A stretch of 64,000 nucleotides of DNA from an uncultured Chloroflexia bacterium (GCA_963765765.1 CAVXYC010000028.1:1-64000); one strand, 5' to 3'. Shown: positions 5,467-24,885, counted from the stretch's first letter. Numbers and translations: made by a program. The notes: a model not told the origin generated them from the sequence alone.

Positions 5467-6077
5467 TCACCCTGCGCCCCACCACGCCCGAAACCGAGCC
5501 CAGACCCCAGTCGGACGCCCCTCCGCCGGCTGGGGCGCGGCTGCGTGCGTCTCCTGAGGTTCTGGACTCCCGGGCGCCTGGCCCTCGGGTATGGATCCAG
5601 TCTGCAGCGATTCCACCTGCTCCCGCAGGTGCGCCGCTTCCGCGTCTCGAACCTAAGCCTGGGCCCTGAGCCGCCCAGCTTCCTCCGCCTGCTCGCGGAT
5701 CGTGCCCTCTTGGCGCTCCACCAGCGCCACTAACGGCCCTAGGAGCTGGGTGTTATACGCGGCCATCGCGTCGGCCCGTTGGAGCTCGCTAGGTACCTGA
5801 GTAGCTCCCATGGGAGGTACCTGTGTAGGTACCTGCTCTGGCACGTCCTCGGGATCGAGCAGCACGCGCACGACTTCGCCTTGCGGGCGCTCGAAACGCT
5901 CGGACCGAGCTCCCGGAGCTACACCAGCGGCGCACGGTGTTCGATGACACGCCCAGGCGCACTGACGCCTCGGTGATGCTGAGCCCGACGTGGGACGTGC
6001 CATGCGCGCCCGATGAGACGTGCCCATTGCTGCGTGTGAGACGTGTCGTGGAAGGTTCTGGGAGGTAGTGGTGTCAC
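5467..6077 (-). CDS. HTH / coiled-coil / Trp-rich-tail protein, paralog 1 (Par/RacA-like architecture; frameshifted)
   Basis: LSITEASVRLGVSSNTVRRW HTH; LVALVERQEGTIREQAEEAGRL coiled coil; C-terminus GVWARFRAWWGAG*. Confidence 0.7.
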
Positions 6078-6157
6078 GTCGCCCAGTCTACGGCTCCGAG
6101 TTTCTAGTGAGCGCTACGTCCGCATCACAAGCGCGCGTGAGCACAATATGGCTCTCG

Positions 6158-6181
6158 CCTGTGATATCGCAGGTGATATCA
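6158..6181. promoter_or_regulatory. putative HicB operator
   Basis: CCTGTGATATCGCAGG near-palindrome followed by TGATATCA directly before hicA. Confidence 0.5.
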
Positions 6182-6188
6182 TCCTAGG

Positions 6189-6423
6189 GTGAAGCGTTCG
6201 GAGATTCGGAGGCGGGTTGAGCAACGGCGGAAGTCGCTCCCCATTAAAGAGCTGTGCCAATTCCTCGATGCGTACGGGTTCGAGCTCGATCGGGTTCGGG
6301 GAAGTCCACCACATCTTCAAGCGCGGCGCTCAGCGGCTCACTGTTCCCGGTACACGGGTCGTCAAGCCCGTCTACGTGGTGCAGGCGCTCCGATTGACGG
6401 AAGGCGAGGACGATGATGAGTGA
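6189..6423 (+). CDS. hicA: HicA-family toxin (frameshifted)
   Basis: ELCQFLDAYGFELDRVRGS + HHIFKRGAQRLTVP...VKPVYVVQAL. Confidence 0.85.
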
Positions 6424-7106
6424 GCACGAAGCGCAGATCCAGGCCATCATGCGGCGGCCCTATCACTTCGATATTCGCGGAACTCCGGAGGATGGCTATC
6501 TCGCATCGGTGCGCGAGTTTGATGGCTGCTTTACCGCGGGCGACACGCCCGAGGACGCACTCGCCATGCTGAAAGACGCAATGGCCGGATGGCTGGAGAG
6601 TGTCATCGAAGCGGGTTTGCCGGTTCCGCCTCCGTCCGACGAACTGGCGGAGTCGCGCTTTAGTGGTCGACTGCTCTTGCGATTGCCGAAGTCGGTCCAT
6701 CAAACACTCGCAGAACGGGCCGAGCGAGGGGGTCAGCATCAATCAACTCACGTTGAGCTACGTCTCGATGGGGCTTGGATCACAGATCACCACTCACTGG
6801 TCGGAAGAAGATGGAGGGTGTTGGGTGGCCACTCATCGGCATTGGTCGGTAGGAAAGGGATTCGCACCGCGCGCCGAAGATGCGACCACGTCTCGGCGAG
6901 AAATCCCGTCTGGAAATGACATTGTTGGCTACTTGTCCGACCATCCTGAAGGACTTCGGCTTGGGGAGATGGAAGCCTATTTCGACGTCCCGCGCCGGGA
7001 GTTGAGCGAGGTCGTCAATCAGCTCGCTGAGGATGACAGCGTCCGACTGGATGAGGACCACCAGCTTTACTACCCTGCTGAGGATGAGGATGCGGAGGTG
7101 AGCTAG
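6413..7106 (+). CDS. hicB: HicB-family antitoxin with RHH and an extra C-terminal winged-HTH-like region (frameshift near 6725)
   Basis: GYLASVREFDGCFTAGDTPEDALAML; FSGRLLLRLPKSVHQTLAERAE + EGVSINQL; start overlaps the hicA stop. Confidence 0.85.
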
Positions 7107-7622
7107 GAAGTCCACTCAAGACCCTCACCAGAACCGCCACAGGGGCGCTCTGACGGCTACTCTTGAGGTCAACGGAGTAAAATAGGCTAGCTCTGTACCC
7201 GCTTCGGCGAATCATGTGCAGAGCGAAAGGGGGTCCAACAGTGGCCGAACTAATCGCCCACTTCGTGAACCCCTGCCGGGTCTCCACTAAGTAACTCGCC
7301 AGGTTGGAATCTGGCAGCCAGACTGCTTGAAATGACGAGACTGGGATGTGAATCCATCTCTGGGATAGTCAGGGACGCGGCCTGGCAGGTCTCTGACGCG
7401 GCACACCTTCGGGGTGAAAAACAGTCAGGGTCGGTGTTGCTTCCGGGACTGGACCTCGCGGAACACGGCGAGCCAGGCGTGTGATCCACGCGACCAGCGG
7501 GCCGGGGCTTACGGCTGTTCGTTGTGGAACTGCTTCCAACAGGAAAGCAACGGGTCGGCAGTCTCGGTACAGGACACTGCGTGCGGGCTAGCATGCCCGC
7601 TTGCCGGAGCTCGGCGCTCCAA

Positions 7623-7668
7623 GTTGATTGGAAACCCGTGCTCCCTCCCTACTCAACCAAGCTAACGG
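7623..7668. repeat. 46-bp non-coding motif A (second copy 26711-26756)
   Basis: GTTGATTGGAAACCC-N3-CTCCCTCCYTACTCAACCAAGCTAACGG, 4 mismatches between copies. Confidence 0.9.
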
Positions 7669-7726
7669 TCCGGGCACCATCCAGACCCCGGTGAGGCAAA
7701 GACTATCTAGTCGACTGGAAATCTGA

Positions 7727-7766
7727 GAACGCGCTAAGCGTGATTATCACAACCAGACGTAACGGA
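7727..7766. other. putative tyrosine-recombinase (dif-like) site B
   Basis: GAACGCGCTAA-GCGTGA-TTATCACAACC-AGACGTAACGGA; related copies at 9458, 16831 and 26194. Confidence 0.6.
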
Positions 7767-7806
7767 TGAGGAGGCCATCGCCCGTATGCGAAGCCTCGGC
7801 CCTCGC

Positions 7807-8361
7807 TCAGCGGAACAGTTGCCGGATGGTCAGCGTCCCGACCGCGGTGAGCGTCCGGCCCCCGCCGGTGAGCGTGACCGTGGCCGGGTGCTGGCCCAGC
7901 GTGTCCGCCTCTCCGTTGGTGGGCAGGATGGTCGCGGTGTACGAGTCCCCGGTCCGGACATCGCGGAGGGGCACCGTCAGGCGGGTGAGGCCGCCAACGC
8001 CGTCGTCGTCGACGTCGGAGCAGCTCGCCGGCTGATGGAGCTGCTCCGCCACCAGGACCGTGGTCGAGGCACCATCACCGAAATGGACCGTCCCGCCGGC
8101 CTCACCGAAGCGCGCATCGACTTCTTCCGGGCGATCCGGTCCGGGGATCTGGAACACCACGTGCATCTGGGTCAGCGGCCCCGGGGACGTGGGGGGAATC
8201 GATGGACATCATTCCGCCGAGTTGCCGGGATCATTCCGCCCCCACCGGGCGGATCGGGCGGGTGTCAGGTCGTCGTCGTGGTCGGCCGCGGCGGTGGCCG
8301 GGAGGAGCGCGAGCAGCCCGACCAGGAACGCGATGGGCAGATGCAACGTCGTCTTCGTCAT
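7807..8361 (-). CDS. secreted hypothetical protein (frameshifted)
   Basis: GGAGG RBS, signal peptide MTKTTLHLPIAFLVGLLALLPATAAA, beta-rich C-terminal ORF. Confidence 0.55.
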
Positions 8362-8535
8362 CGCCGCCTCCGACCGGGTCCGCGCCCCGGTCCCGGCCGC
8401 CAGTCTAGCGCCGAGTGGGGCGTCCAGCAAGCCCCACGTAGCGCGGGGCCGGGCCATGGCACAGGGCATTGTGCTTTCTCTCGCCTCCCCGTAGACTGCC
8501 GTGGGGGTCTCGGAGCCCTCCAGAGGAGTTCCTCA

Positions 8536-8816
8536 TGCGACGTCTCGTCTACGCGTTCTCGTTGATCGCCGCGCTGGCGGTGCCCGGGACCTCGGCTGCG
8601 CCCGTGAGCGCGCAAACTGAGCCGCCTGAGCCGCAGTGTGCCCCGGTCGCTATATCGGACTTTCAGTTCCATGCAGATGCCGGCGATCTTCGCTACCTGG
8701 GCCTTGTCCAGCAGGCCAAGGCGGCCGATCGCAACGGCGACCGCTTGGTCTGCACGAACGAGCGGACACGTTTCACCGACAAAGCCTTCGCCGCAAGCAT
8801 CACCGACAATCCCTAA
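8536..8816 (+). CDS. small secreted protein with DxNxD (Ca-binding-like) motif
   Basis: GAGGAG RBS, signal peptide, two Cys, ADRNGDRLVC. Confidence 0.65.
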
Positions 8817-8978
8817 TCGTACGCGTCGTACGGCGCGCGCCCGGCGCATCCGCTGGGATCCCGCACCCCGCACGAATCAGCCGCCCGGTGAGATCACCGG
8901 GCGGCTTGTGTATGGTGCGTTATGGTTACCAGGATGCTGTTATGTCGCCTGCATCACCGCGGCGAGCTACACTGAGCC

Positions 8979-9249
8979 ATGGACGACCTTGAATTCGTTC
9001 AGCGGCTTCACCCCGATCAGATCACCCCTGCCCGGCTTCTCTCTCAGTGGATTGCAGATTCGCTTTGATCGCCCGTTCATGAGGAGCCCCAGCGTTTCTG
9101 CCCATGTTGGCCGCAGCGTGAATACCGGCGAGCTCTCGGTTCACTGGCAAGCCCATGGCCTCCCGGCCAGCGCCACGGGCGGCGAGCTCCAACTCGCGAC
9201 GTACGAAGGCTCCCTTCCAGACCACCCGCCCGGGTGGTGGCAGAGCTAG
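8979..9249 (+). CDS. hypothetical protein (probably leaderless, frameshift near the start)
   Basis: TACACT 5 nt before ATG 8979; open frame to 9249. Confidence 0.35.
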
Positions 9250-9294
9250 ACCGCAGCGGCTAGACGCCCTGATCGCTGCGTGTCATGATAATGA

Positions 9295-9465
9295 TGTCTC
9301 CTTGCTGGGGGACGCCCCGGTCGCGGTCGTGGTATGGGTATACCACCTCCTGCCACGCCCTCGGCCGGGGATTGCGGTAATCGCTAGGCAGGTCAGGCCT
9401 CAGCGGAGGACCCACGCCTCCAGCTTCTCCGCGAGCGTGAGCATATCGCTGCTCTTCACCAGACG
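9295..9465 (-). repeat. gene 'S' 3' end plus conserved downstream leader (second copy 17615-17800)
   Basis: 38 bp identical at 9295-9332 and 17615-17652, ending in an AAGGAGA RBS on the minus strand; KSSDMLTLAEKLEAWVLR* vs KSADLFCLAERMEAWVLR*. Confidence 0.85.
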
Positions 9466-9493
9466 TAACGGACCGGCTAGTCAGCACCGTCTC
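9458..9493. other. truncated site B copy
   Basis: ACCAGACGTAACGGACYGGCTAGTCRGCACCKTCTC, 33/36 identical to 16842-16877. Confidence 0.7.
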
Positions 9494-9557
9494 CTAAAGG
9501 CTCTCCGGAAAGCATCTCTATGGCACCTCTAAGGTGCTAGCATGGCTATTAGCGGCG

Positions 9558-9574
9558 GTTAACGTCACGTTAAC
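9558..9574. promoter_or_regulatory. putative TA operator palindrome
   Basis: GTTAACGTCACGTTAAC just upstream of the DUF433 gene. Confidence 0.55.
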
Positions 9575-9595
9575 TGTGCTAGGGGTGGATGCTGT

Positions 9596-9877
9596 ATGAA
9601 GATCGAGAGCATACGTGTCGGTAGCGCGCCACTGATACAGGAGACCCCCGGTGTGAGTGGTGGGTATCCCTGTATTGGTGACACCAGGATCCCAGTACGG
9701 TCGCTCGTGCTGGCCTACCGTCAGACCCACGACTTCGATCGCGTCCTCGAAGCGTTCCCGCAGCTCAAGCCCGAGGTTATTCGAGCAGCCCTCGACTGGT
9801 ACATCCTTCATCCCACCGACGTGGATGAGGACATTCGGCGGAATGCCGATAGCATGGAGCGCGTCCTAAGCCGCTAA
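9596..9877 (+). CDS. DUF433 antitoxin (VapB45-like)
   Basis: PGVSGGYPCIGDTRIPV...FPQLKPEVIRAALDWY. Confidence 0.9.
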   Translation: MKIESIRVGSAPLIQETPGVSGGYPCIGDTRIPVRSLVLAYRQTHDFDRVLEAFPQLKPEVIRAALDWYILHPTDVDEDIRRNADSMERVLSR

Positions 9878-10242
9878 TGGACGGCTTAGGAATCACTGTC
9901 TTCACTGACGAGATGATCACTCCGCGGTTGGCCGCGGCTCTACGAGCGCTCGGCTACGACGTCGAAAGCTGCCAGTCTGTCGGGCGAGCCAACCAGCGCA
10001 TCAGCGATTACGATCAACTCGCGTATGCGACGAGTCAGGGACGCGCAATCTATACATTCAACGTGGCCGACTTCGAGCGACTCGATATCCAGTGGGCGAA
10101 TGCGCGGCTCTCGCACGCGGGCATCATCGTTTCCGAGGACCTCAATACCGACCTCCAGGAAATGACCCGCCGGCTTAAGATCCACCTCGACACAGTCACC
10201 CCAGCGACACAGCACAACAGGCTTTTGCCGCTCGCCACCTAG
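9877..10242 (+). CDS. DUF5615 PIN-like toxin (VapC45-like)
   Basis: FTDEMI...LRALGYDV...SDYDQLAYA...GRAIYTFNVADF...HAGII; TAATG translational coupling. Confidence 0.9.
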   Translation: MDGLGITVFTDEMITPRLAAALRALGYDVESCQSVGRANQRISDYDQLAYATSQGRAIYTFNVADFERLDIQWANARLSHAGIIVSEDLNTDLQEMTRRLKIHLDTVTPATQHNRLLPLAT

Positions 10243-10541
10243 CCCCAAAACCGCCACCAGGGCCGTTGACCACTCTCAGGCTCGGAGGCCACCTGTGGCC
10301 GTTGTTCGTCGGCCATCTGGCTAAGGGTGGCGAACATGCGTCGCACTCCTTGGTCCGTCCACCCCTGCGCTACTAAACGTCGGAATACTTCGTCTGGTGG
10401 TTTCCCGTCATTGAGCGCTTTGACCGCTTCCTGAACCTCGTTATCCGATTGGTCAAGTTCGGCAGGCTCAGGCAGTCGAGATTCGCATCCGTGACACCAG
10501 CGCATTCCCGAGGGAAAAGCCCCACACTTTCGACACCACAT
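10239..10541 (-). CDS. zinc-ribbon protein with RPWWRFWG tail
   Basis: CRKC...CHGC; Trp-rich C-terminus. Confidence 0.65.
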   Translation of the reverse strand: MWCRKCGAFPSGMRWCHGCESRLPEPAELDQSDNEVQEAVKALNDGKPPDEVFRRLVAQGWTDQGVRRMFATLSQMADEQRPQVASEPESGQRPWWRFWG

Positions 10542-10555
10542 GCCCGCTCCCTGTT

Positions 10556-11168
10556 TCAAGAAGTCCAGAACCGCCGCCAGCGGACCCAGAACCTACCCGG
10601 ACGCTCCTCGGCTGGCTGTGAGTCCGCTGTGTGCGTCTCCTGGGGTCCTTGGGCGTCCTGCTGTTGAGCATCCGGGCTCTCCTGACTGTCATCGGTTGTC
10701 ACAGATGGCACCGTGTCAGGGCTGACAGGCGGGCTGCCATTGTCAACGGTCACTGACGGTTGCTCTGACAGTTGACGCTCAAGGTCCTCGACCCGTTCGC
10801 TTAGTCGACCTTTCTCTTCGGCCAGGCTGGCGATCTGCTCGCGCATGGCGGCCATCTCTGCCATCACCGGCTCGAGCTGGCGGCTGACAGCCATGCTGAA
10901 GCGATCCACGAGCACGATCGCCCGCTCGGTGCTGTCATCGTCCTGCCGTTGGCGCTGACTGTCAGGTGTCACTGACGGTCGGTCTGTCAGTGACACCCAG
11001 ACCTCGATCCGCCCGCTCTCCGTCTCTCGCCGAGTCAGGCGACCTTGCGCGATGCGGCGGAAGAGACGTCCGCTCACTGACACCCAGGCGCTGCATGGCA
11101 GTCCGAGTGTCCACCCATTCGCCTGCCTCACCCGCTGGCTGGCTGTCGCTGTCAGGTGTCATTGTCAT
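10556..11168 (-). CDS. HTH / coiled-coil / Trp-rich-tail protein, paralog 2 (frameshift near 11065)
   Basis: WVDTRTAMQRLGVSERT(L)FRRIAQGRL; MREQIASLAEEKGRLSERVEDLERQL; GRFWVRWRRFWTS*. Confidence 0.8.
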
Positions 11169-11206
11169 GACGCGGCAGTGTACGTCAAAGCCACTCCCTG
11201 AGACAG

Positions 11207-11476: not shown

Positions 11477-11575
11477 TTAGATAGCGAGGTACTTGCTGCT
11501 GCTCTCGGTGGGCCTGGCGTGCAGGTAGCGGCCAGTCGTGCCAACGGACGCATGGTCTAGAGTCGCCTGCCCTGG
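11477..11575 (-). pseudogene. C-terminal remnant of a tyrosine recombinase (resolvase/Xer-like)
   Basis: QATLDHASVGTTGRYLHARPTESSSKYL matches box II (LGH..I.TT.RY) including the catalytic Tyr. Confidence 0.75.
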
Positions 11576-12112
11576 AACCGGTTCGGGATGACGGTTGTAT
11601 CGTTGGCAACAGGTCGAGGCGTGGCATATGATCCTCCCTCTGGAGTAATCGGCTGACACTTGACCCTCCGCCGGATAAGGTCTATCCCCGACGACTGGGA
11701 TGAGATTCGTACCCGCAAGTCGCTCCCTGCGGCGGTTGGAATCTCGATGTGCCCGGCCCACGGATGGGTGCCATCGCGGCCAAGCATCGATTCTCATACG
11801 TGGATCTTCGTCCCACGTTCCTCCAGGAAGCGGACTCCCAGATCGCCTCTTCTACCGATCTGATATCCAGTGGACGGAGCGTGGTCACGATGTTGCCGCT
11901 CAGCGATTGGCCGAAGCTCTTTTGAGCGCTTCGGTTGAAGCACGAGAGTCAAGATAGCCAGGGAGTACAACCGGCCACTCGACTTCGGCTGCTATCATGT
12001 CCTGCGTCGACGCAGAACGTGACGCTCTCAGCGAGGCCGGATGGTCAGCGGCAGGCAAAGTCATCCCATCTCTCCGAGTCACCATCCGTACAACAACTTC
12101 CGATTGGTCACC

Positions 12113-13446
12113 ATGTCACATGCTCTCCACGTCGCTCCGCCGCGCCTGCATCGATGGCTCACGCTGTTTTGGTCGACCTGGCTGGTATCGGCGCTCATAT
12201 GCGGCGCCTTGGTGTTCACACCCGGTTAATGAAAGCGACATCCTCCACTACAAGCACTGGGCTCGGAAGGTCACCCTCAACGGCGTGGAGAGCGCGTACA
12301 CCGGGAAGAGCACGCGCGACTATGTGATGTATCCGCCGGTCTTCGTGTACGTCTACGCGGCCGTTGGTCATGGTTACGCTCAGTGGATCGATCCCGGCTT
12401 CGACATTGAACGCATGAAGGCAAGCTCCACCCTCACCGCGGGGATCAAGGGCGTTGCGGTCGCTGCGCATCTCGCCCTTGGGGCCTCGCTTTTCGCTCTC
12501 CTTCGGAGACTTCACTCTGAGAAGTGGGCGGCCATCGCAAGCGCGACGTATCTCCTCAACCCGGCCGCAATCTTTGGCTCAGCCGTGTGGGGGGCGCCGG
12601 ACGGACTCCATTCGCTTGGCATCCTTGCCGCGTACGGCCTGGCCGAGCTGGAGTATGGGTGCCGCCTGGCTCGCGCTGGCTCTTGCCGCGTTATGCAAGC
12701 CTCAGGCCTGGATTCTCATGCCGCTGTTCGGCTTTCGTCAGCTCAACGTGGGAGGAAGGCGAAGAATCCTGGGGGGTGGGCTGATCGCGGGCTTGACTCT
12801 TGGCCTCGTGATTCTTCCGTACATTCTCAGTCAGCGCCTCGATGAGCTCCTGACGCTTCCGCCAGCCATCGCGCAGTACATGCCGTATGCATCCGTCAAT
12901 GCGCACAACTTCTGGTGGCTTGTTGCCGATGGTCGACTCTTGCTCGATCGCGTGCCGTGGATCGGGTCAATCACGTATGAGCAAGCGTCCATGGCGCTAG
13001 TGCTGGCATTCACGATGTGCGTGCTGCGCCAGGCGCGGGTTGAGCGGCGGGGCAGGCTGTTCCTGCTGGCGGCGTATCAAGCGTTTGGCTGGTTCTGCCT
13101 CTCCACGCAGCTCCACGAAAATCACTCGTTTCTCGTAATACCGCTCCTGGCGCTGGCGCTCCCGTTCGATGGATGGGTCTGGAAACCGTTACTCGCGGTC
13201 TCCACCACCCTTCTGGCCAATATGATGCTGCATGACGGAAGTATCGCCGCGTCACTTTCGAGCGATCTTGTCCACCGCTTTACGATGATGAATGCGCTTG
13301 GTAATATGGCCATTCTGGCAGGCTGGACCTGGCAGCTTCTGGTGATGCCATCCGCTGTATCGACACGGCGCAGCTTAGGTGTGACCGGATTCCTGCCAGG
13401 GCGGAGCTCGCGTTTGATTCGGATCGTTGAGCACAAGGCCGGCTAG
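12113..13446 (+). CDS. GT-C fold membrane glycosyltransferase (mannosyltransferase-like; frameshifted)
   Basis: SDILHYKHW, YPPVFVY, LLNPAAIFGSAVWGAPD, LCKPQA, SVNAHNFWWL, TQLHENH; many TM segments. Confidence 0.75.
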
Positions 13447-13780: not shown

Positions 13781-13839
13781 GCCCCCGTCTGCTACATCTT
13801 TCGGGGGCTCTTCAATGCCTATTGACGGGTGCCGGTTTC
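13781..13839. repeat. 59-bp identical repeat with hairpin (second copy 22539-22597)
   Basis: GCCCCCGTCTGCTACATCTTTCGGGGGCTCTTCAATGCCTATTGACGGGTGCCGGTTTC in both places. Confidence 0.92.
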
Positions 13840-14019
13840 ACACTTGCCGCCACTGCCTTGAAGATGGTTAAGTGTCCCGGCGCAAAGCGCGATCTGGCGA
13901 CTCAACTGCCAGGCGCGCTAACGTCGGTGCACTCATCATCCTTCGCCCATGACATTCCGCCTCTGTAATGGCTCCCCCAGTTCGCACAGCGTCAGGATTC
14001 TGATGCAGGCGGAACCTCG

Positions 14020-15774
14020 GTGCCTGCTGGAGAGACGTTCGTGATGAGTCTCCAGCGCATGGTTAGCGCGCTGATTGTGCTGCTCGCCATGACGCTGTCG
14101 ACTTCGACCCAAAGCGCCATGCTCGCTGATTCTGGGGCCGATGGCTCTTCGCTGGAATCGGTCAACCTCGGCCGCCGCTTACTCCGCGCTGGGTGTTCCT
14201 ACCCTGGGCCTGGGAGGACGACGACCAGGATGCTCGTGCCGTCATTGATCTCGTGGACGGTTATCGAATTCCGGGGCATCCCGCTCGGGGCGGTCGTCAT
14301 CGATAGCCCGTGGGCCACGAATTACAACTCCTTTGAATTCGGACCCAATTACCCCAGGCCTGCCGAGCTCATGTCCGAGCTCAAACAACGAGGCATTCGA
14401 GTCATTCTGTGGGCTACCGGAATGATCAATGTGTCGTCTACTGATGGAGCCAATCTCGGCAAGGCCGACAACTACGACGAGGCGTACGCGGCCGGCTACT
14501 TCGTCAATCGCGGTCAGACTTACAACTGGTTGAAGGGTGTAGGAAGCGGCATCGACTTCTTCAATCCAGCCGCCGTCGCCTGGTGGGAAAAGCAGCTCGA
14601 TAAGATCATGTCGCTGGGAGTCTCAGGCTGGAAGGTGGACTATGCCGAACGCCAACTTCCATCAGATGTAGAAACCGCCGCTGGCACCAAGACCCAGGCG
14701 GAGTACGGAGATGCCTACTATCGAGCTTTTTACAGGTACACCATCAGCCGCGACCCGGAGGCATCATCCTGGCGCGGCCATTCGATGATAAGGAAAATTT
14801 TGCACCTGTAGATGCGAACCCGGCTGGCTGGGTAGGCGATCAGAACCCATCCTGGGGCAATGACGGCATTGACGAGGCAGTGGACAACATGATTATTTCC
14901 GCCGAGCACGGCTATGCCGTGGTTGGATCGACATCGGCGGCTACGCTTACGGCGAGCGTGACGCTGAGCAGTTCGTTCGATGGGCACAACTTGGCGCTCT
15001 TAGTCCGCTCATGGAAAACGGCGGTAGAGGCGAGCATCGTCCGTGGCGGTATGGCCCCGAGGTGCTGAACATTTATCGGCGCTTCGCCATTCTTCACTAT
15101 GAGCTTGTGCCATATCTGTACAGCCTGGGCATCGAGGCGCATCGAACGGGTACGCCAATACTCCGTCAGACCAATCGGAACAATCGTCAATACCAGCTTG
15201 GCCCTGACCTGCTGGTCGTTCCGATGACGGGCGTGGGGGGGCAGCGTGTAGTGGAGCTGCCTGAAGGCGAGCGCTGGTACGACTTCTGGGACGACGATGA
15301 GATCCTGGAAGGCGGGGCGCGGTTTCAGGTGTCAATGCCGCTCGACAGGGCGCCACTCTACATCCGCTCCGGTGCGATTCTGCCTCTTCAGGTTGAAGAC
15401 GACACGTGGGGGCACGGCGGCGCGGCTTCGGCTGACGCATTGACGCTGCTCATCTATCCCGCGGCTCACTCTCGCATTGCCTACTATCCGGACCCCAGTC
15501 ACAAGATCGATATCGAGGTGAAGCGCCAGATGTTCTCCGGCTCGGTACAGATAGGCGCGGGGCAGGACTCGTTCGTCCTGCGGATCAAGAGTCGTCCGCC
15601 CCCGCGTCCGTGTCAGCGCAGCAGCGTAATTCGGAGTTGAGCGTCGATGAGATAGCAACCTGGGATGCGTTTGACCGACCCGTGGACAGCTGGTACTACG
15701 ACACGGCCGGTCAATATCTGTGGATAAGACTCACCGGTGATGGCTCTCCGCTGAGCGTGTCGTACCGCTTCTGA
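14020..15774 (+). CDS. secreted glycoside hydrolase family 31 (frameshifted)
   Basis: IPLGAVVIDSPW, IDFFNPAAVAWW, GWKVDY nucleophile motif, LVPYLY, YQLGPDLLVVP, APLYIRSGAILP. Confidence 0.85.
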
Positions 15775-15785
15775 CCGCACGATGG

Positions 15786-15823
15786 CTCAGTCTTTTGAGC
15801 ACCTCTCAGTCTTTTGAGCACCT
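15786..15823. repeat. 19-bp tandem duplication
   Basis: CTCAGTCTTTTGAGCACCT x2. Confidence 0.9.
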
Positions 15824-16065
15824 CGATGTTGTTCATGGCGCCCTGGTAGCCACCGTTGATCCCGCCGGCGATCAATCGCCTCGTTCACCTGGACCAGCGC
15901 CGCGGTGAGCCGCGCGACCGCATCCGCATTCTCGCTCTGCTCTTCAATCAAATCCTGAAGGCTCTCCACCATCAGTTCAAGGACCTCAAGACTGTGGAGC
16001 CCCGTCTCAGCTTCCAACCGACGCACGAGCTCCTGGAGCGCCTCATCCGGCCCCAGCCCCGTCAC
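15787..16065 (-). CDS. recurrent helical gene 'V' (most complete copy)
   Basis: MTGLGPDEALQELVRRLEAETGL...; partial copies at 4273-4500, 22730-22762 and 24000-24086. Confidence 0.7.
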   Translation of the reverse strand: MTGLGPDEALQELVRRLEAETGLHSLEVLELMVESLQDLIEEQSENADAVARLTAALVQVNEAIDRRRDQRWLPGRHEQHRGAQKTERCSKD

Positions 16066-16068
16066 TGC

Positions 16069-19816: not shown

Positions 19817-19999
19817 TCACGCTGAGGTGATCGGCTGAATCAGCTCCGGCCCCTGACCGCTCGTTCTGTTCACCTTCTTCGAGACGGGGAACGCCTGCAT
19901 GGACTCGGCCGGGTAGGGCATCAGCATGGTCAGCGCTTCGGCCGTGTCGGTCATCTTCGGATCCAGCCAGACGTCTTCCAACGCGGGTAGCAGGATCGC
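19817..19999 (-). pseudogene. C-terminal remnant of an SOS response-associated peptidase (SRAP/YedK family)
   Basis: ILLPALEDVWLDPKMTD...LMPYPAESMQAFPVSKKVNRTSGQGPELIQP*. Confidence 0.8.
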
Positions 20000-20034
20000 T
20001 TCACCTCCACACGGCGGCCACTATACTGGCGCCG

Positions 20035-20292
20035 ATGTTCAAAGGCTCGAAGCGCCTGCTGTACGTCGGGATCGTTGTGGGGTGGCTACTGGCCATCGCG
20101 GCCGATCAGCTCGTCGGGTACGAGTATCGACTTCACCATGAGTGCTGTATTCCTCCAAGAGAGACGCAGATATTGGTCTCTGATGGGTGGGAATACGTAC
20201 AAGAGTTGCAGGAGCGCGACTACTATCTGCGCCGCCAGCGCTGGATGGGGTGGGTCGAGGATCTGCGCTGTAACCCTCGCTGGTGCTTCTAG
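20035..20292 (+). CDS. small membrane-anchored DUF4177-like protein (intact copy, within repeat 19996-20367)
   Basis: N-terminal TM, YEY, DGWEYV, YLRRQR; TATACT 7 nt before the ATG. Confidence 0.7.
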   Translation: MFKGSKRLLYVGIVVGWLLAIAADQLVGYEYRLHHECCIPPRETQILVSDGWEYVQELQERDYYLRRQRWMGWVEDLRCNPRWCF

Positions 20293-20395
20293 GGCATCAA
20301 CTCAATCACGATCACCGGGTTGCCGGTGATCGCTCAGATTTCACGCTACGGCGCTCTGGTGAGGGGTAGCCGAAAAACGCCGGGTCGGAAGCCTT

Positions 20396-20853
20396 CTAGT
20401 GCCCGCCGGGTGACTGGGCGCCACTGAGCCAGCCATAGACCTTATCGGACAGGTTGTGCTCGACATCGTGCGCCGCCGTCACCGGACGGGCCGCCGCGGC
20501 AACATCTTCATCGCGCAGCGTGCCCTCGAGCGCCTGGAGATGCTGGACGAGCTCGGTGGCCATGGGCTGAACCTCCTGCGGCCACTGCGTCGCTTGCGTG
20601 GCGATCCGGGCGCGGCGCACCCGGCCAAGCGCGCCGGCGACGAACTCACCGTTGTTGAGCTTCACGTCGAGGTCATGCAACCCGGCTGAATCCAGTTGAT
20701 AGATCACCGCCATCACCTGGGCCTTCTGCGCCGCGAGCGCGAGGTCCTGCTGCGCTTCCGCCGGCCGCGGGCCCACGGAGAGCAGCGCGCTGATACTAAC
20801 GATCGTCATGCCAATGATCAGGCCGATCACCGTGGACACCGGGTGTAGACCAT
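20396..20853 (-). CDS. secreted His-containing helical protein
   Basis: Signal peptide ending AEA; GLHDLD, LVQHL, AAHDVEHNL. Confidence 0.65.
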
Positions 20854-21009
20854 AGGGAGACTCCTTGAGGGCATGGTATAGCTCAGTCCGGTCGGGTCAA
20901 TAACGAACCGGTGGGCATTACCTCCGCCTCGAGGCATCCTCCCTGTTATGGTGTCCGTGCATTTCTCCATGCAGGGGAATGCGTTGACCCCGGAAAGGGG
21001 GTAAGGCCG

Positions 21010-21188
21010 TGGACACTCCACAGTGCGCTGACACAGAGCTCGCCGAACGTCTGACTGCCCGCGAGATCGAGGTGCTCCGTCTCGTGGCGGAAGGATGCGA
21101 TAACCAGACGATCGCCACCTGCCTCGAGCTCGATCGGGCCACCATTCAAACACACGTCGATGCGGTGCTCACCAAGCCGTCGGGCTAG
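21010..21188 (+). pseudogene. LuxR-type HTH fragment
   Basis: LTAREIEVLRLVAEGCDNQTIATCLELDRATIQTHVDAVLTK. Confidence 0.75.
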
Positions 21189-21197
21189 TGACTGGAT

Positions 21198-21494
21198 TCA
21201 GTGAGCGCCTTGACTCGCACGCTCGGTCCAGTCCAGGTGCCTTACTGATCTCGAGGCAGCCGGTTCGCGGTCCGCCAGCTTGGCACGCAGCCAGCGGAAC
21301 ATCGCGGTGCAATCGCCGTCCGTATGGCCGGCAGGCCGATACTCCGCTCGGAGCCTGTCGATGATGGGGGCCGCGGCCGATCGCAGCTCTCCGAAGGCCT
21401 CGTCTGACGGGCTCCGATCAACGGTGTGAAGCGCCACCCGGAATCGCTCGAGCAGAGCGTCTCGGTCCTGATCGTTCGTCCTATGGGGGTTCAT
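21198..21494 (-). CDS. hypothetical protein
   Basis: MNPHRTNDQDRDALLERFRVAL..., helical composition. Confidence 0.4.
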   Translation of the reverse strand: MNPHRTNDQDRDALLERFRVALHTVDRSPSDEAFGELRSAAAPIIDRLRAEYRPAGHTDGDCTAMFRWLRAKLADREPAASRSVRHLDWTERASQGAH

Positions 21495-21703
21495 TGTTTC
21501 ACACCTCTGCAAGGAACTCCGGTAGCCTCTAACTCGTCCACATCCGCCACCCGACCCACACCGCTGGCTGCGCTGTTCCCCCAGTATCTGCAAAAAGTGA
21601 CGTCTAGATAGATGCACCTTGACATAAAAATGCACGCAGATAGACACCAACTTCGTTGAGTAGAGATCTAGGACACCGTTCCCCCCCACCTCGGGGCGTC
21701 GAA

Positions 21704-21743
21704 AGAGCGCCACGCTTGTGCTGACCAAACGTGGCGCTCTCTA
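21704..21743. terminator. strong hairpin, possible terminator
   Basis: AGAGCGCCACG-N-CGTGGCGCTCT inverted repeat. Confidence 0.45.
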
Positions 21744-21785
21744 CGTGGAGGTGGGTCCACCCTGGCGGAAAACCAGGTGGACCAC

Positions 21786-22283
21786 TCAGCCAGACGCGCA
21801 GTGAGCCTCCACGGTTCCTCTTCCAGGATCGCCCGGGCACCCTAGCACCAGCGTGCGGTTCAGGAGAGCTGGTGCTTCCCGACGTCCCAGGTGCTCGGCT
21901 TCACTTCCCGCGGCGGATCGCCGTACCAGAAGTCCGGGTAGGCCGGTTCGGAGTTGAAACGATCGACTACGGCCCCGGATCCCTGGAATTACAATCTGTA
22001 GAGGCCCCGTGGCTCCAGAGTTCACCCATGACCCGCCCACCAAGAACAAGCACAACACCCGATGTGCCCTCGCCTATCGACTCGGTCCCCCCGTTGGGCG
22101 ATTGAGGCGACCCTCCGAAGATTGCGGTCGTTGCCCCCATGCAATTGGCATCGTCGGTCGGTATTACATTGGAGCCGGGACTGAGTTCGAAGATTGATTC
22201 TCAGCCCACGCTTGCTCTCCGCCCGAAAGTGAACTCAACGCGATGACCGCCCCCACGGCGACCGCTACTACGCGACGTTTCAT
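21786..22283 (-). pseudogene. secreted hypothetical protein (interrupted)
   Basis: AAGGAGG RBS, signal peptide MKRRVVAVAVGAVIALSSL...AWA, broken frames. Confidence 0.45.
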
Positions 22284-22538
22284 ACTCCCCCTCCTTGCTG
22301 ATGTGCGTGCTGTGCTGGTCCAGTGTCGGCGAGCCTGCCTCTGTAGCGGACACTCCGCACTGCCCGCTGCTCGGTCAGTTGGACCGCAGGAGCATAGCCA
22401 AAAGACATGCGTCGGTGCCGCACAATCCCACAGGTCTTCTGATACCACCCCGCCCCGCGGAGGCCGTTTCTCGTCACGCTATGAGGGCGTTTTTCTGACC
22501 CTGCTAAAGAGTTGGCACACGGAGACACCCTGATGTTT

Positions 22539-22597
22539 GCCCCCGTCTGCTACATCTTTCGGGGGCTCTTCAATGCCTATTGACGGGTGCCGGTTTC
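22539..22597. repeat. 59-bp repeat, copy 2
   Basis: Identical to 13781-13839. Confidence 0.92.
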
Positions 22598-22970
22598 CCG
22601 TGCGACGATGCGCACGGACCGAGGTCGTGCAGGCCCCGGTCCATCACCCCGCGAAGCCCTCGGCCGTGCTAACCCACCGGGGGCTTCGCTCTGGGAATCG
22701 CAGGTGCTGTACCACGCCCACACGCCCCCCTGGAGCGCCTCAGCCGGCCCGAGCCCCGTCACCGTCACCGTCTCCAGGAACGCCGTAAGCGATCCCAGGC
22801 CCCAATCGGACGCCCCTCGGCCTCCTGCGAGGCCTGTATAGGCGCCTGCACAGTGCTTGCCCCCTGGACGTTGGGCATCTGCCCAACGTCTGCCCCCTGA
22901 AGTACGAAACCCCCGACCAAGAACCCCAGGCCAAGTTTGTAGCACCACGCGGGCGTACACTAGCGCCATC

Positions 22971-23994
22971 ATGACGCCAACCGGGTCCGCCCGCACCCGT
23001 CGCCGCTTCCTCAGGGGCGGCCTGGCCCTCGCGAGCCTTAATTTGCTCTCTGGCTGTGGAATCGTGTCGCTCCCAGGACAGTCCGCATCCGGCGGGACGA
23101 AGGTTCCTCGGATCGGGTACCTGGCGCCAAGCGCTGCGCCGACAGCCGAGCTCGAGGCGTTCCGCGTAGGCCTGCGCGATCTGGGGTACACGGAGGGCCA
23201 GAACATCGCGATCGAGGTACGCCTGGCGGAGTCGTCGGAGCAGGTTCCAGCCATGGTCGCTGAGCTGGTGGCTCTGCCGGTGGACCTGATTGTGTCGGCC
23301 GGGACGTTGTACACCCAGGCGGTAGTGGGTGCCACGCGCACGACCCCGATCGTCTTCGCCGCCGCGCCCGATCCAGTCCGAACCGGGTTTGTCGCCAGCC
23401 TGGGCCCGGCCCGGCGGGAACGTAACCGGGATGAGCGCCCAGACGCCGCAGGCCATGGGGAAACGTCTGCAGATGCTGCGGGAGCTCGCACCGAGCGCCT
23501 CGCGGTTCATGTTTCTCACCAACGCGATCGCATCCCAGTCTACCGGCGGTCTTCAGGAGGTGGAGCAGGCCGCCCAGTCGCTCGGCGTGCAGCTCATGGC
23601 GCCGGACATTATCACCGCCGCCGATCTCGCAGCCGCCTTGGAGATGGCCGTCGAGGACCATGCCGAAGCACTCCTGGTGAGCGGGTCACCACTCTTCGCA
23701 GGTGAGGTGGGGCGGATCGTTGAATTCGCCAGAGCGCACCGGCTGCCCGTGTTGGCTCAAGACCGCATCTTTCCCGACGCGGGCGGGCTGATTTCCTACG
23801 GGCCGAACCGGCTCGCCCAATTCCGCCGTGTCGCCACGTATGCCGACGAGATCCTCAAGGGCGCCGATCCCGCGGACATGCCGGTGGAGCAGCCCACCGA
23901 GTTCGACCTGGTCATCAACCTCAAGACCGCCCAGGCCCTCGGACTCACGATACCCGCATCCGTGTTGAACCAGGCGACTGAGCTGATCCAGTGA
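22971..23994 (+). CDS. ABC transporter substrate-binding lipoprotein (PF04392-like), Tat signal; frameshift near 23410
   Basis: TRRRFL...LLSGC; FRVGLRDLGYTEGQNI; GGLISYGP; ILKGADPADMPVEQPTEFDLVINLKTAQALGLTIP. Confidence 0.92.
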
Positions 23995-24082
23995 CCTCGT
24001 TCCACCCTCTGCAGCGGCGAGCCCCGTCTCAGCCATCAATCACCGCACGAGCTCCTGGAGCGCCTCATCGGGCCCGAGCCCG

Positions 24083-24601
24083 TCACTCGCTCCAGAACCG
24101 CCACCACGGCCGCTGCTGCGCCCTCGCCAGTTGCTCGCGGAGCTTCTCAATCTGAATCTGCATAGCATCACGCTCCACATGCAGCACGGCGATCGTCTCA
24201 TCCTTCGCTGCGATGGCCTCGTTCTTGGCCGCGATCACCCCTGCATGCATCCCCTGCATGCGCGCCATTTCCCCCTGAAGACTTTCTGAAAGCCGTTCTA
24301 TCTCACGCTCGTGGGCCTCGGCTTGGTGCTGTAGGAGAATCACCACGGCGCTCGCATCCGTCTGGGCTGGCGGCTCGACGTATGCAGGGAGTGCTAACGG
24401 GGGTGCAGCATCCGGGGCAGCCTGGGGTGCGGGCGCATCGTCCGGAATCTCCACCAGGATCTTGTACCCACCGCGGGGCAGGTTCTCGTGCTCAGTCGCG
24501 AGGTAGCGCGGATCCTCGGGCTCGAGCCGCGTCCGGCGCTTGATCGTATCGACGCTACAGCGCAGACGGTCGGCCGCTTCCTTCATCGGCACCCAGGCCA
24601 T
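24083..24601 (-). CDS. HTH / coiled-coil / Trp-rich-tail protein, paralog 3
   Basis: WVPMKEAADRLRCSVDTIKRR; IAAKNEAIAAKDETIAVL; QRPWWRFWSE*. Confidence 0.85.
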   Translation of the reverse strand: MAWVPMKEAADRLRCSVDTIKRRTRLEPEDPRYLATEHENLPRGGYKILVEIPDDAPAPQAAPDAAPPLALPAYVEPPAQTDASAVVILLQHQAEAHEREIERLSESLQGEMARMQGMHAGVIAAKNEAIAAKDETIAVLHVERDAMQIQIEKLREQLARAQQRPWWRFWSE

Positions 24602-24885
24602 GCACACCCCCTAGCACGCATCCCCTGCACGGTAGCGCAGTGCATCCCCAGCAGTTCAAGGGTGCAGCGTCACGTTTGCGCCCCCAAGCAGCCAGGGGGC
24701 AGCACCGGGTGCAGAGGGTGCAGGACAGCAAAAGAGGCCCGTTTTGGGCCTCCGTGGTAACCATAGTGGTGATTATCGTTCTCAACAGAACGGGGAGCCT
24801 TTCCTATATTGACGAATCAGACAGTACCGACCCACTGGTACTGGCCTGCACTCGGCCGTGAAGAAATCGCGCTACACTGGTGCCG

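Follow-up and report, generated by a model that had tools for sequence, protein, structure and literature searches.

Among described DNA-binding proteins, RocS of Streptococcus pneumoniae and Par of the Staphylococcus aureus plasmid pSK1 combine a MerR-type winged helix-turn-helix (wHTH), a central oligomerising coiled coil and a short membrane-binding C-terminal element in that order (PMC11500499). In RocS the C-terminal amphipathic helix is the membrane anchor and membrane binding requires multivalency; Par is described with a DUF536-AH module in common with RocS, and a model in which the protein ties DNA to the membrane is put forward for RocS and perhaps also for Par. Par is also presented as a partition system made of a single gene, whose product recognizes repeated sequences on its own plasmid (PMC11500499). 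The same paper describes RacA, a Bacillus subtilis chromosome anchor, as a MerR-like wHTH protein with a coiled coil; its sites are short, GC-rich inverted repeats, and it fastens DNA to a place on the cell envelope (PMC11500499). By architecture only, not by sequence, RocS, pSK1 Par and RacA are the closest known kind to three genes (paralogs 1 to 3) in a 64,000-nt stretch of DNA, the window, from an uncultured Chloroflexia bacterium (GCA_963765765.1 CAVXYC010000028.1:1-64000).

The Par repeats lie upstream of par, whereas the many RacA sites are scattered through the region around the origin and DivIVA is the anchoring partner. Excisionases, which are single-domain proteins of ~60-80 aa paired with an integrase, occupy arrays of short repeats in a cooperative manner, as does BldC. 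Operators within coding regions are known from lacO2, galOI and purR, and in lambda O/ori and small terminase/pac the gene itself contains, in its linker-coding part, the array to which its product binds.

Results

On sequence grounds the three window genes were assigned to a Chloroflexota family that is so far undescribed. From the N- to the C-terminus its members have a winged HTH of the excisionase/MerR type, followed by a variable linker, then a coiled coil and finally a conserved tail, (R)PWW(R/K)(F/R)(W/L). The common HTH, coiled coil and Trp-Arg tail pointed out in the earlier note were borne out as features of a conserved family. Tail residues R164, W166 and W167 were at least 90% conserved in the family alignment, and the tail was also found behind unrelated N-terminal domains; we take it to resemble the membrane-active Trp/Arg hexapeptide RRWWRF. 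Many members were single-copy chromosomal genes. The PF12728 (HTH_17) and TIGR01764 (excisionase family) profiles matched 22 and 20 of the 31 aligned members, with best E values of 2e-9 and 6.5e-9, respectively. Paralog 3 itself gave no HTH_17/excisionase profile match at E<=0.01 and the HTH fragment of paralog 1 gave E 0.007, below the cut-off, so that membership is assigned through the family as a whole rather than through the individual window genes.

The AF2 model of paralog 3 (mean pLDDT 78.4, pTM 0.38) had residues 1-50 folded as a winged HTH, residues 55-76 as a disordered linker and residues 83-162 as an 80-residue helix, ahead of the tail RPWWRFWSE. The wHTH elements followed a beta-alpha-alpha-beta-beta order (E2-5, H6-13, H17-24, E36-38, E46-50; pLDDT there 65-82), showing the excisionase-type winged-helix topology. 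When residues 78-172 were modelled as a homodimer, the chains were parallel and in register with a score of 0.60 (best control, 0.01); 20 of 30 solved pairs attained this mark, as did 1 of 23 single chains. Separate runs shared at least 93% of their contacts, with a partner pLDDT of at least 83, and the family coiled coil is predicted to be a parallel dimer. The fold search with the paralog 3 model gave no significant match (best E 0.67). Its best small structural neighbour was BldC (TM 0.64 (target), rmsd 2.1 A over 49 columns, E 1.8), and the neighbours also included the Par DNA-binding domain 8csh (TM 0.48 (target), E 4.0, not significant) and RacA entries 5i44 and 5i41 (TM 0.41-0.47 (target), E 1.5-2.6).

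Profile searches gave no sign of sequence membership in the RacA, KfrA or pSK1 Par families. DUF536 gave no match to the window proteins at E<=1, KfrA_N was absent from the window-protein matches, and neither appeared in the top-25 family list of the 31 members. The RacA NCBIfam models NF009648 and NF009649 matched 2 of the 31 members at 2.4e-4 and 2.6e-4; the window proteins had no RacA profile match, and no RacA chain appeared in the PDB sequence search. RacA membership was rejected on two grounds: no profile match passed the cut-off, and the words described below clustered at their own gene in three genomes (in G206, among the matches listed) instead of being dispersed over a chromosomal region.

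Paralog 3 was the only single open frame; paralogs 1 and 2 were not intact in the assembly (Table 1), which carried frame changes even within rpoB. The reading frame of paralog 2 shifted near 11065, and a 94%-alike soil-metagenome contig was without one base at 11065, indicating that the shift is an assembly error or strain-specific. The HTH helix of paralog 1 (LGVSSNTVRRW) could be read in a single frame, that of ORF 5789-5962, which differed from the frame of the rest of the gene. By tblastn, paralog 2 matched the paralog 1 locus with 26.5% identity over 181 aa (E 9e-7). A family profile search of the 106-aa ORF next to paralog 2 matched no family.

Table 1. Genes and repeated words at the three loci (positions in the window)
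Feature	Position	Strand	Remarks
Paralog 1	5467..6077	-	Tail frame 5467-5652, ending ...VWARFRAWWGAG; in-frame TAG 5653-5655; wing/linker/coiled-coil frame 5656-6027
Three AGGTACCT palindromes	5791, 5815, 5827 (span 5791..5834)		Post-wing linker DNA, peptide QVP x3
Perfect 10-nt inverted repeat TGGCACGTCC / GGACGTGCCA	5839-5848, 5993-6002		Brackets HTH-coding segment of paralog 1
GACGTGCC x3 at paralog 1	5840, 5994, 6017		Three copies
Neighbouring 106-aa ORF	10239..10559	-	CxxC...CxxC motifs; ends in family tail GQRPWWRFWG; overlaps paralog 2 stop
Paralog 2	10556..11168	-	Frame A from ATG 11168, MTMTPDS...LGVSERT; frame B to stop 10556, LFRRIAQG...coiled coil...RFWVRWRRFWTS
Array of 16 TGWCA (TGTCA/TGACA), six being CTGACAG	10687..11167		Paralog 2; word counts, shuffles, genome scan
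Paralog 3	24083..24607	-	Intact ORF; homologs begin at MAWVPM (24601)
CTGCACCC/GGGTGCAG, private word of paralog 3	24401 (linker); 24660, 24707, 24716 (upstream, non-coding)		4 of 203 genome copies
13-mer TGCATCCCCTGCA x3	24246-24258 (coiled-coil coding); 24617-24629, 24641-24653 (upstream)		Private word of paralog 3

At paralog 2, the 16 TGWCA sites counted earlier by hand were reproduced, where the frequency of the word in the window predicts 0.68. They fell into three clusters, one in the linker that follows the coiled coil (10687-10770), one in the post-wing linker (10885-10995) and one at the N-terminus and start codon (11078-11167), with zero sites in the parts coding for the coiled coil and tail. 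Shuffling of synonymous codons (5000 shuffles per test, in own-codon and genome-usage versions) gave means of 4.7 and 1.7, respectively, and none of the 5000 reached 16. The max-k-mer test gave p 0.0005 and the locus ranked 38/32385 in the genome-wide scan of 600-bp windows; it was also the densest TGWCA cluster of the 6.5-Mb genome, with 11 per 300 bp vs 6 at the next locus. The 16 sites occupied two codon phases, both orientations and 12 amino-acid contexts, and used the rare codons ACA and TCA plus T-ending codons. A 32-nt unit occurred twice, its copies 81% alike. Of the 7 TGWCA cores in 10684-10913, 3 were altered in the 94%-alike relative and 3 of 18 listed differences (of 38) struck cores, showing no sign of purifying selection on individual sites.

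Paralog 1 held 3 of only 11 copies of AGGTACCT in the 6.49-Mb genome, within 44 bp. Shuffle means were 0.2 (own codons) or 0.03 (genome usage), and 0/5000 reached 3. All three window copies of AGGTACCTG fell inside this gene, as counted before; for GACGTG/CACGTC, however, the recount gave 5 (0.43 expected) in place of six. Codon shuffles averaged 0.6 or 0.5 GACGTG against 4 observed, a count that 0/5000 attained. The locus ranked 146/29051 in the scan of 600-bp windows.

For paralog 3 we again found 13 TGCA in 24159-24722, five upstream and eight inside the ORF, against 1.9 expected. However, shuffle means for the ORF were 6.3 or 6.0, and 831 and 610 of 5000 shuffles reached 8, showing that the in-ORF excess is amino-acid driven. 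The locus ranked about 516-1185 in the genome-wide scan of 600-bp windows. Thus enrichment beyond that set by the protein, the null proposed in the earlier note, held for TGWCA in paralog 2 and for both AGGTACCT and GACGTG in paralog 1, and failed for TGCA in paralog 3. The better-supported private words of paralog 3 are CTGCACCC, with 4 of its 203 genome copies at this locus, and the 13-mer TGCATCCCCTGCA, rather than TGCA.

Other genomes held members with the same layout. Each word was 7-12 bp long, specific to its member and often palindromic, and its copies stood on either side of the HTH-coding 150 nt, in both orientations and several codon phases. Member L063 carried CGTCCTGACG eight times (2 copies forward, 6 reverse; all three phases used), with 8/8 locus copies inside the gene; L046 had eight TGCCCGGACAGG, L022 eleven GGGCCGGAAC and L015 five CACTGAC, and smaller arrays were present in L049, L050, L047, L058, L051 and L024. 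Some copies at paralog 3, L047, L051 and L057 were upstream and non-coding. The arrays sat mostly in the 5' region and linker DNA around the HTH-coding segment, not across the whole coding sequence, and the claim that the coding sequence is saturated with its motif was not upheld. At least five distinct sites of the top 7-mer were found in 13/53 family ORFs vs 11/259 control ORFs (Fisher p 1.4e-5). Site density did not differ between family and controls (Mann-Whitney p 0.58), and only 3/49 family ORFs reached p<0.01 in an unbiased max-7-mer permutation test. About three quarters of members were without an array, none of the single-copy Dehalococcoidia-type members examined had one, and arrays were weak or absent in six further copies in the source genome. 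The idea of a private word for each gene was therefore retained for members with arrays, where a different word recurred each time, and not for TGCA at paralog 3 or for most members.

In the word-by-gene matrix, off-diagonal counts of at least 3 occurred in 4/864 cells, at least two of which joined identical or similar recognition helices (L047/L067; paralog 2 with L015); diagonal counts were high by construction, since the words were chosen after seeing each gene. TGWCA clustered only at paralog 2 in the source genome. Genome G065 had 69 GCCCGGACA (reversed control, 51), of which six clustered, only in the L046 gene; genome G206 had 129 GGCCGGAAC (control, 155), of which five clustered in the L022 gene, only there among the matches listed. 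The same word was kept in L047/L067 (common helix LSPKTLRRHAQQG, 70% DNA identity) and in L024/L065 (common helix VSDRTLRRQIA, 65% DNA identity), mostly at non-homologous positions. Paralog 2 and L015 were alike in recognition helices and in words, and words diverged between paralogs with nearly identical C-terminal modules. These two ortholog pairs, with paralog 2 and L015, are a first sign of a correspondence between HTH and word; against it, the helix of L012 was nearly that of L015, yet L012 had fewer than two CACTGAC.

Discussion

The family shares a MerR-like wHTH and coiled coil with RacA and differs from it at the C-terminus. In pSK1 Par and RocS a MinD-like amphipathic helix takes the place of the Trp/Arg tail. 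Unlike in Par/RocS, the candidate sites lie inside or immediately around the own coding sequence, the word differs per paralog, and many members are chromosomal. The HTH, unlike that of excisionases, is fused to a coiled coil and tail, with an integrase in 1/82 neighbouring ORFs. Lambda O and small terminase have other C-terminal domains and were matched only at the generic HTH level; membership with them was rejected, with no match beyond the HTH and no partner genes among the families listed.

We tentatively favor a reading in which the product of each gene is a small dimeric DNA-binding protein whose candidate sites are carried by that same gene, so that the protein would act mainly on its own locus, possibly tied to the membrane. 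Built from a winged HTH of the MerR/excisionase type, a parallel coiled coil and a short Trp/Arg tail at the C-terminus, this dimer would recognize an array of its member-specific 7-12-bp word placed close to the HTH-coding segment on both sides of it, within the 5' region and the DNA for the disordered linkers. We infer that the HTH binds the words and the tail the membrane, perhaps with a role in segregation. The protein would repress or loop its own gene, and the tail may tie its own DNA stretch to the membrane, as RocS does and Par probably does.

Ordinary autoregulation only is possible, if somewhat unlikely. Here the words would be operators of a self-repressing transcription factor, promoter/5' and auxiliary coding sites would form a repression loop, and the tail and coiled coil would serve oligomerisation or a non-positioning role. 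Sites on both sides of a ~150-250 bp segment starting at the gene's 5' end, the upstream non-coding sites noted above and the many palindromic words, which suit a dimeric HTH, are consistent with this. However, no second word cluster was found in the genomes checked (this one for TGWCA, G065, and G206 among the matches listed), leaving such a regulator no target except itself; 8-16 sites far exceed the need of a loop, and a strictly conserved tail common to unrelated N-terminal domains points to a second activity. We consider it improbable that the arrays are a DNA-level by-product, arising by slippage or unequal crossing-over in low-complexity linker DNA or as sites of another protein or recombination system. 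The concentration of sites in linker-coding DNA, where forward copies encode the repeated peptides PSVTxD, QVP, PGQ and GPGPE, would fit, as would the duplicated unit of paralog 2, the lack of conservation of individual sites in the close relative and the mosaic, repeat-rich islands around the loci. But reverse copies encode other peptides, several codon phases are in use, non-coding DNA holds some copies, orthologs keep the word at different positions, and words are unlike between paralogs with nearly identical C-terminal modules.

A replication origin or packaging site within the binder's gene, as in lambda O with ori iterons or small terminase with pac, both HTH proteins with repeats in their own coding sequence, appears highly improbable. 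Weak HTH-level matches (E 6e-5 to 1.6e-4) to phrog_57 (terminase small subunit) in 9/31 members and phrog_391 (O-like) in 2/31, rep_pAB02_ORF2 matches in 4/31, and the presence of an AAA_25/DnaB-type helicase and an integrase on one 44-kb contig that holds three family copies point this way. Yet the phrog matches were confined to the generic HTH, many members are single-copy and chromosomal, and no large terminase, portal, capsid or Rep was present in the 25 most frequent of 30 families (82 neighbouring ORFs). Chance or purely amino-acid-driven composition can be given almost no credence overall and is very unlikely for paralogs 1 and 2: amino acids explain the in-ORF TGCA of paralog 3 and most family members are unremarkable, but the shuffle, max-k-mer and rank results of paralog 2, the tight AGGTACCT group and the reappearance of arrays in other genomes stand against it.

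For the self-binding proteins favored here, the HTH codons that would set specificity sit between the candidate cognate sites, so that protein and site would stay linked and could co-diverge into non-cross-reacting paralogs. That relatives across one phylum repeat this layout is suggestive of single-gene modules whose proteins bind at their own locus.

Word arrays at the three loci in the window

The earlier note had counted a different short word at each of three small genes. The 16 copies of TGTCA/TGACA (TGWCA) that it gave for positions 10687-11167 at paralog 2 were borne out, against 0.68 expected from the window, and so were 13 TGCA in 24159-24722 at paralog 3 (8 in the ORF and 5 upstream; 1.9 expected). 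All three copies of AGGTACCTG in the window were found in paralog 1, as had been stated, versus about 0.03 expected. GACGTG/CACGTC was enriched in paralog 1 (5 versus 0.43 expected), but the figure of 6 was not reproduced. The same note had asked for a check against shuffled codons, and 5000 synonymous shuffles were made per test. The excess in paralog 2 survived: 16 sites were observed, the mean was 4.7 when the gene's own codons were permuted or 1.7 with genome usage, and none of the 5000 shuffles reached 16. Both words of paralog 1 survived as well, AGGTACCT with 3 copies versus 0.2 or 0.03 and GACGTG with 4 versus about 0.5 (0 of 5000 for each). TGCA in the ORF of paralog 3 failed, since its 8 copies, compared with about 6 in the shuffles, were reached by 831 and 610 of 5000. 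The 16 sites of paralog 2 were spread over two codon phases, both orientations and 12 distinct amino-acid contexts, and drew on ACA and TCA, both rare (usage about 12-13%), plus T-ending codons; this array is a nucleotide-level feature.

When the genome was scanned in 600-bp windows, paralog 2 ranked 38 of 32385, paralog 1 ranked 146 of 29051 and paralog 3 only about 516-1185. Many windows ranking above paralog 2 had very high single-word counts, as expected from tandem or low-complexity repeats. The densest TGWCA cluster in the genome was paralog 2, with 11 per 300 bp versus 6 at the next locus. Longer words gave a sharper signal than short ones at all three genes. Three of the 11 genome copies of AGGTACCT fell within 44 bp at paralog 1, and 6 of 515 copies of CTGACAG were in paralog 2. 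Paralog 3 had 4 of the 203 genome copies of CTGCACCC, at 24401 in the linker and at 24660, 24707 and 24716 in upstream non-coding DNA, and three copies of the 13-mer TGCATCCCCTGCA. In a relative 94% alike to paralog 2, 3 of 7 TGWCA cores between 10684 and 10913 were altered (18 of 38 differences listed), which counts against the reading as binding sites.

Reading frames and assembly

Features of the window at and around the three paralogs
Feature	Position	Strand	Description
Paralog 1	5467-6077	minus	three disruptions
Paralog 2	10556-11168	minus	MTMTPDS...LGVSERT in one frame, LFRRIAQG...RFWVRWRRFWTS in another; switch near 11065
Paralog 3	24083-24607	minus	single open frame, 174 aa; homologs start at MAWVPM, position 24601
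Pentapeptide-repeat genes	4500-5334; 25217-26100		adjoin paralog 1 and paralog 3, respectively
HicA/HicB-like ORFs	6189-6919		translation reading only
DUF433-like and PIN-like pair	9596-10242		translation reading only
Integrase C-terminal fragment	about 11477-11600
LuxR-type HTH fragment	21009-21188

In paralog 1 one frame, that of ORF 5789-5962, gave the HTH helix LGVSSNTVRRW and another, that of 5653-6027, gave wing, linker and coiled coil; an in-frame TAG at 5653-5655 preceded the tail ...VWARFRAWWGAG. Frame changes were present even within rpoB of the draft genome (6.49 Mb, 33 contigs, 91.8% complete), and several ordinary window genes also looked split, so that breaks in the paralogs need not mean pseudogenes. 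A soil-metagenome contig 94% alike to the paralog 2 region differed by the absence of a single base at 11065, which puts paralog 2 in frame in that relative. Three soil-metagenome runs matched small parts of the stretch, with paralog 1 essentially uncovered, and the runs listed as matching it included none of RNA.

A pseudogene family was rejected because frame breaks were common throughout the assembly and one break was absent from a relative. A programmed frameshift was rejected because break positions varied from copy to copy. Single-base indel errors seem to be numerous in the assembly. Matches to rpoB (contig C20 of the window's genome, G000:C20:326017-329370) switched frame twice within one long open frame, and overlapping-frame splits were seen at window positions 11997-13446, 14020-15640 and 22857-23994, in membrane glycosyltransferase-like, GH31-like and ABC substrate-binding genes named from their translations.

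Protein family and predicted structure

A word-index search with paralog 3 returned three relatives only, and no convincing match to it was found in 40 related genomes; the family appeared tiny before an exhaustive profile search, which gave 96 representatives at E<=0.001 among 1.84 billion. Full-length matches were chosen for retrieval (32 of the 96), and 30 were aligned with paralog 3. The 31 members shared one plan: an N-terminal helix-turn-helix and wing (W-V-x-x-x-E-A-A-x-x-L-G-V-S-x-x-T-I-R-R-R...), a variable low-complexity linker, a coiled coil and, at or near the C-terminus, the tail (R)PWW(R/K)(F/R)(W/L), in which R164, W166 and W167 were at least 90% conserved. Only the N-terminal domain was placed by profiles, namely HTH_17 in 22 of 31 members, TIGR01764 (excisionase family) in 20 and phrog_66 (excisionase/regulator) in 22. 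A whole-protein model was absent from the family libraries searched with the 31 members, and the window proteins had no match above cut-offs in Pfam and NCBIfam. The source of one cluster labels it 'excisionase family DNA binding protein'.

The AF2 model of paralog 3 (mean pLDDT 78.4, pTM 0.38) showed a beta-alpha-alpha-beta-beta winged HTH at residues 1-50, disorder at 55-76, a long helix at 83-162 and a short terminal helix. A fold search with the full-length model gave nothing at E<=0.001 (best E 0.67), and a PDB sequence search gave coiled-coil noise only; the DNA-binding domains of BldC, RacA and pSK1 Par were among the small structural neighbours of the HTH part, none as a significant match. 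Two copies of residues 78-172 were modelled as a parallel in-register dimer with a score of 0.60 versus 0.01 for the best control. Among solved pairs 20 of 30 attained this mark, as did 1 of 23 single chains, and coiled coils may pass it through likeness to solved coiled coils. Contact agreement between runs was at least 93%, and partner pLDDT was at least 83.

A short form (G000:C7:166486-166728, on contig C7 of the window's genome, and protein matches P0004 and P0007) consisted of the first 16 residues (MAWVPMNEAAKRLGCS), coiled coil and tail, without recognition helix, wing and linker. Its recurrence in metagenomes shows that it is more than an isolated deletion, and it could form heterodimers with full-length members. 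In P0005, a giant protein of 4364 aa, 34 stretches matched the coiled-coil part of the profile, a match that is presumably repeat-driven and unrelated to the family.

The RPWWRFW tail was also found at the end of two other ORFs, a zinc-ribbon-like CxxC...CxxC one at 10239-10559 next to paralog 2 and a small one that neighbours the C20 copy (G000:C20 near 475375). Because it ends proteins with other N-terminal parts, the tail behaves like a portable module. The tail strings PWWRFW, WWRFW and PWWKRL were not found in the literature searched, and PWWRRW was found only in an unrelated conopeptide paper. A similar Trp/Arg sequence is the membrane-active hexapeptide RRWWRF. Metagenome contigs matching the tail-coding end of paralog 2 (10518-10621) diverged at 10621, and a contig matching the remainder of the gene diverged before 10684 (window 10536-10684); it seems that different gene bodies swap the C-terminal module.

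Distribution and neighbourhood

Among 401 genomes sampled in the same phylum, 175 matched at E<=1e-5, many of them by the generic HTH alone; several dozen matches, among the matches listed, covered most of the model. Use of the unpublished genomes G006, G199 and G251 was confined to the 40-genome and 401-genome tallies. A subfamily from small single-contig genomes had 47-75% identity to Dehalogenimonas and other Dehalococcoidia records, and its phylum is therefore Chloroflexota. Copies or fragments numbered at least nine in the window's genome and at least seven in genome G065; those of the window's genome occupied mosaic islands whose pieces recurred on other contigs. No conserved partner was found among 82 flanking ORFs, which included one integrase; HlyIII was the commonest neighbour family (5 of 82), in the small-genome subgroup.

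Window positions 1-27000 were a mosaic of fragments recurring on contigs C1, C7, C10, C20, C25 and C32, often beside other family copies, and 2 kb of it (13837-15862) was 96% identical to C1:339865-341873. A Pfam search of submitted pieces from this region gave no match. A small ORF beginning MTGLGPDEALQELVRRLE... overlapped the paralog 3 stop, where only its first codons remain (24019-24092); a full copy lay at 15787-16065 (DNA 87% alike), and the same start followed the C32 copy (L006, downstream of G000:C32:295238). This ORF may be a conserved downstream partner gene. In another genome, contig G204:C2 (43956 bp, 67% GC) carried three family copies (L060-L062), two of them 98.5% alike over 608 bp, and also encoded an AAA_25/DnaB-type helicase, a tyrosine integrase and HerA-, GmrSD- and AbiEii-like genes; it is probably a plasmid or integrative element.

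Arrays in other family members

Family members in other genomes with their words
Member	Genome	Word and copies	Remarks
L063	G065	CGTCCTGACG x8	2 forward, 6 reverse, three phases; gene contains all 8 core GTCCTGA copies of the 3.5-kb locus
L046	G065	TGCCCGGACAGG x8
L022	G206	GGGCCGGAAC x11	palindrome GTTCCGGAAC included
L015	G141	CACTGAC x5
L049		GCCGTCCGC x7
L050		TGGCGGAC x5	GGCGGA at 9 places
L047		GGGCTACC x5
L058		GTTGGTAC x4
L051		AGCTTAAAGCT x6
L024		GCCATGGC x3

An unbiased test, in which the count of the most frequent 6- or 7-mer was compared with synonymous permutation, picked out further members in other genomes, each with a different word. When this kind of test was applied to paralog 1, its third segment (5906-5988) was translated in the middle ORF's frame instead of that of the HTH, which leaves the AGGTACC result unaffected. 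In every tabulated member the sites flanked the 150 nt coding for the HTH, those on one side lying in the N-terminal extension or 5' region and those on the other in the DNA of the post-wing linker; paralogs 1, 2 and 3 were arranged likewise. Palindromes and near-palindromes were frequent among the words, as a symmetric dimer would lead one to expect. In these statistics, which draw on related genomes, crude controls and words chosen after viewing each gene, at least five distinct sites of the top 7-mer were found in 13 of 53 family ORFs versus 11 of 259 controls (Fisher p 1.4e-5), and at least six in 8 of 53 versus 4 of 259. The controls were other stop-to-stop ORFs of the same loci, with family-overlapping ones removed and words with fewer than two A/T excluded. 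Typical site density did not differ between family and controls (Mann-Whitney p 0.58), and a stricter permutation test (p<0.01) picked out 3 of 49 family ORFs versus 4 of 282 controls, two of which overlapped the L022 gene. Arrays are thus not constant across the family: about one member in four forms a heavy tail that has them, and none of the single-copy Dehalococcoidia-type members does.

Correspondence between recognition helix and word

When 16 words were counted in all family genes, off-diagonal counts of at least 3 occurred in 4 of 864 cells, and at least two of these four linked genes with identical or similar recognition helices. The word of L047 was also present in L067, and CACTGAC of L015 occurred four times in paralog 2 (helices SESTLRRRI and SERTLFRRI, respectively). 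L047 and L067, from different genomes, had the common helix LSPKTLRRHAQQG and 70% identical DNA; L024 and L065, also from different genomes, had the common helix VSDRTLRRQIA and 65% identical DNA. Both ortholog pairs retained their own word, mostly at non-homologous positions, and their linker peptides differed, a pattern that looks like binding-site turnover with selection on presence rather than place. Across the G065 genome there were 69 copies of GCCCGGACA (51 of the reversed control), and the only cluster was six in the L046 gene. The G206 genome had 129 copies of GGCCGGAAC (control 155), of which five, among the matches listed, clustered in the L022 gene.

Discussion

Read most simply, the words would be cognate sites for the HTH encoded beside them, and the main target of each protein would be its own locus. 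That the proteins are self-addressed binders which tether or position DNA is quite possible, at somewhat less than an even chance. Sites on both sides of the HTH codons could also serve plain autoregulation with looping, which we consider somewhat unlikely. It is distinctly improbable that the arrays are a DNA-level by-product or the sites of another protein. Helices with S/H-E-R/S paired with C(G/T)GA(C/A) cores and others with GGTAC-like cores, in a small sample grouped post hoc; L012, as evidence against such a correspondence, had nearly the helix of L015 with fewer than two copies of the L015 word. The odds of an origin or pac-like role are small; ParA, terminase and Rep families were absent from the 25 most frequent of 30 families matched by the flanking ORFs. 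Chance likewise has small odds, and beside it stand both the shuffles that never reached the count of paralog 2 and those that did reach the TGCA count in the ORF of paralog 3.

For the self-addressed binder, we infer binding, membrane association and any segregation role as follows. A dimer would bind the array that lies in the 5' region and linker codons of its own gene, and its Trp/Arg tail would fix that locus, or a mobile element bearing it, to the membrane. With the HTH codons lying between the gene's own sites, protein and site would co-diversify into mutually orthogonal pairs, so that many cassettes could coexist in one cell, such as the nine or more copies in the window's genome and the seven or more in G065. 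Selection would act twice on the coding sequence, which would serve both as protein linker and as centromere-like array. That the genes are one-gene DNA-positioning cassettes in this complete form, with own array, membrane-pinning tail, orthogonal co-diversified pairs and dual selection, as the earlier note had largely proposed, is unlikely. Nothing relevant to a centromere inside the binder's own coding sequence was found in the literature searched.

The closest known kind is that of RocS, pSK1 Par and RacA, with a MerR-type winged HTH, a coiled coil and a C-terminal anchor. The family is like them in architecture, not in sequence; profile and PDB searches gave no match to RacA above threshold, and neither DUF536 nor KfrA was among the hits of the window proteins or the 25 families listed for the 31 aligned members. 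According to passages of PMC11500499, RocS binds the membrane via an amphipathic helix that requires oligomerisation, and pSK1 Par, a one-gene plasmid partition system, may act like RocS. The family differs from these proteins in its Trp/Arg tail, in candidate sites within and around the protein's own coding sequence, and in words that are paralog-specific.

If the arrays are own sites, these genes would be a minimal DNA-addressing system, with binder and address in one small gene, and nature would already have supplied paralogs whose specificities seem not to overlap. They would offer a tractable model of the co-evolution of DNA-binding specificity and site under tight linkage, a clear natural example of a second, DNA-level code shaping coding DNA, and orthogonal protein-site pairs for synthetic biology. 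Even as merely autoregulatory operators, the arrays would still mark an undescribed, phylum-wide type of regulator with unusual operator placement. If the reading as own sites is true, the poorly understood class of single-protein segregation or tethering systems (RocS, pSK1 Par and RacA) would extend to Chloroflexota, with a new membrane tail.
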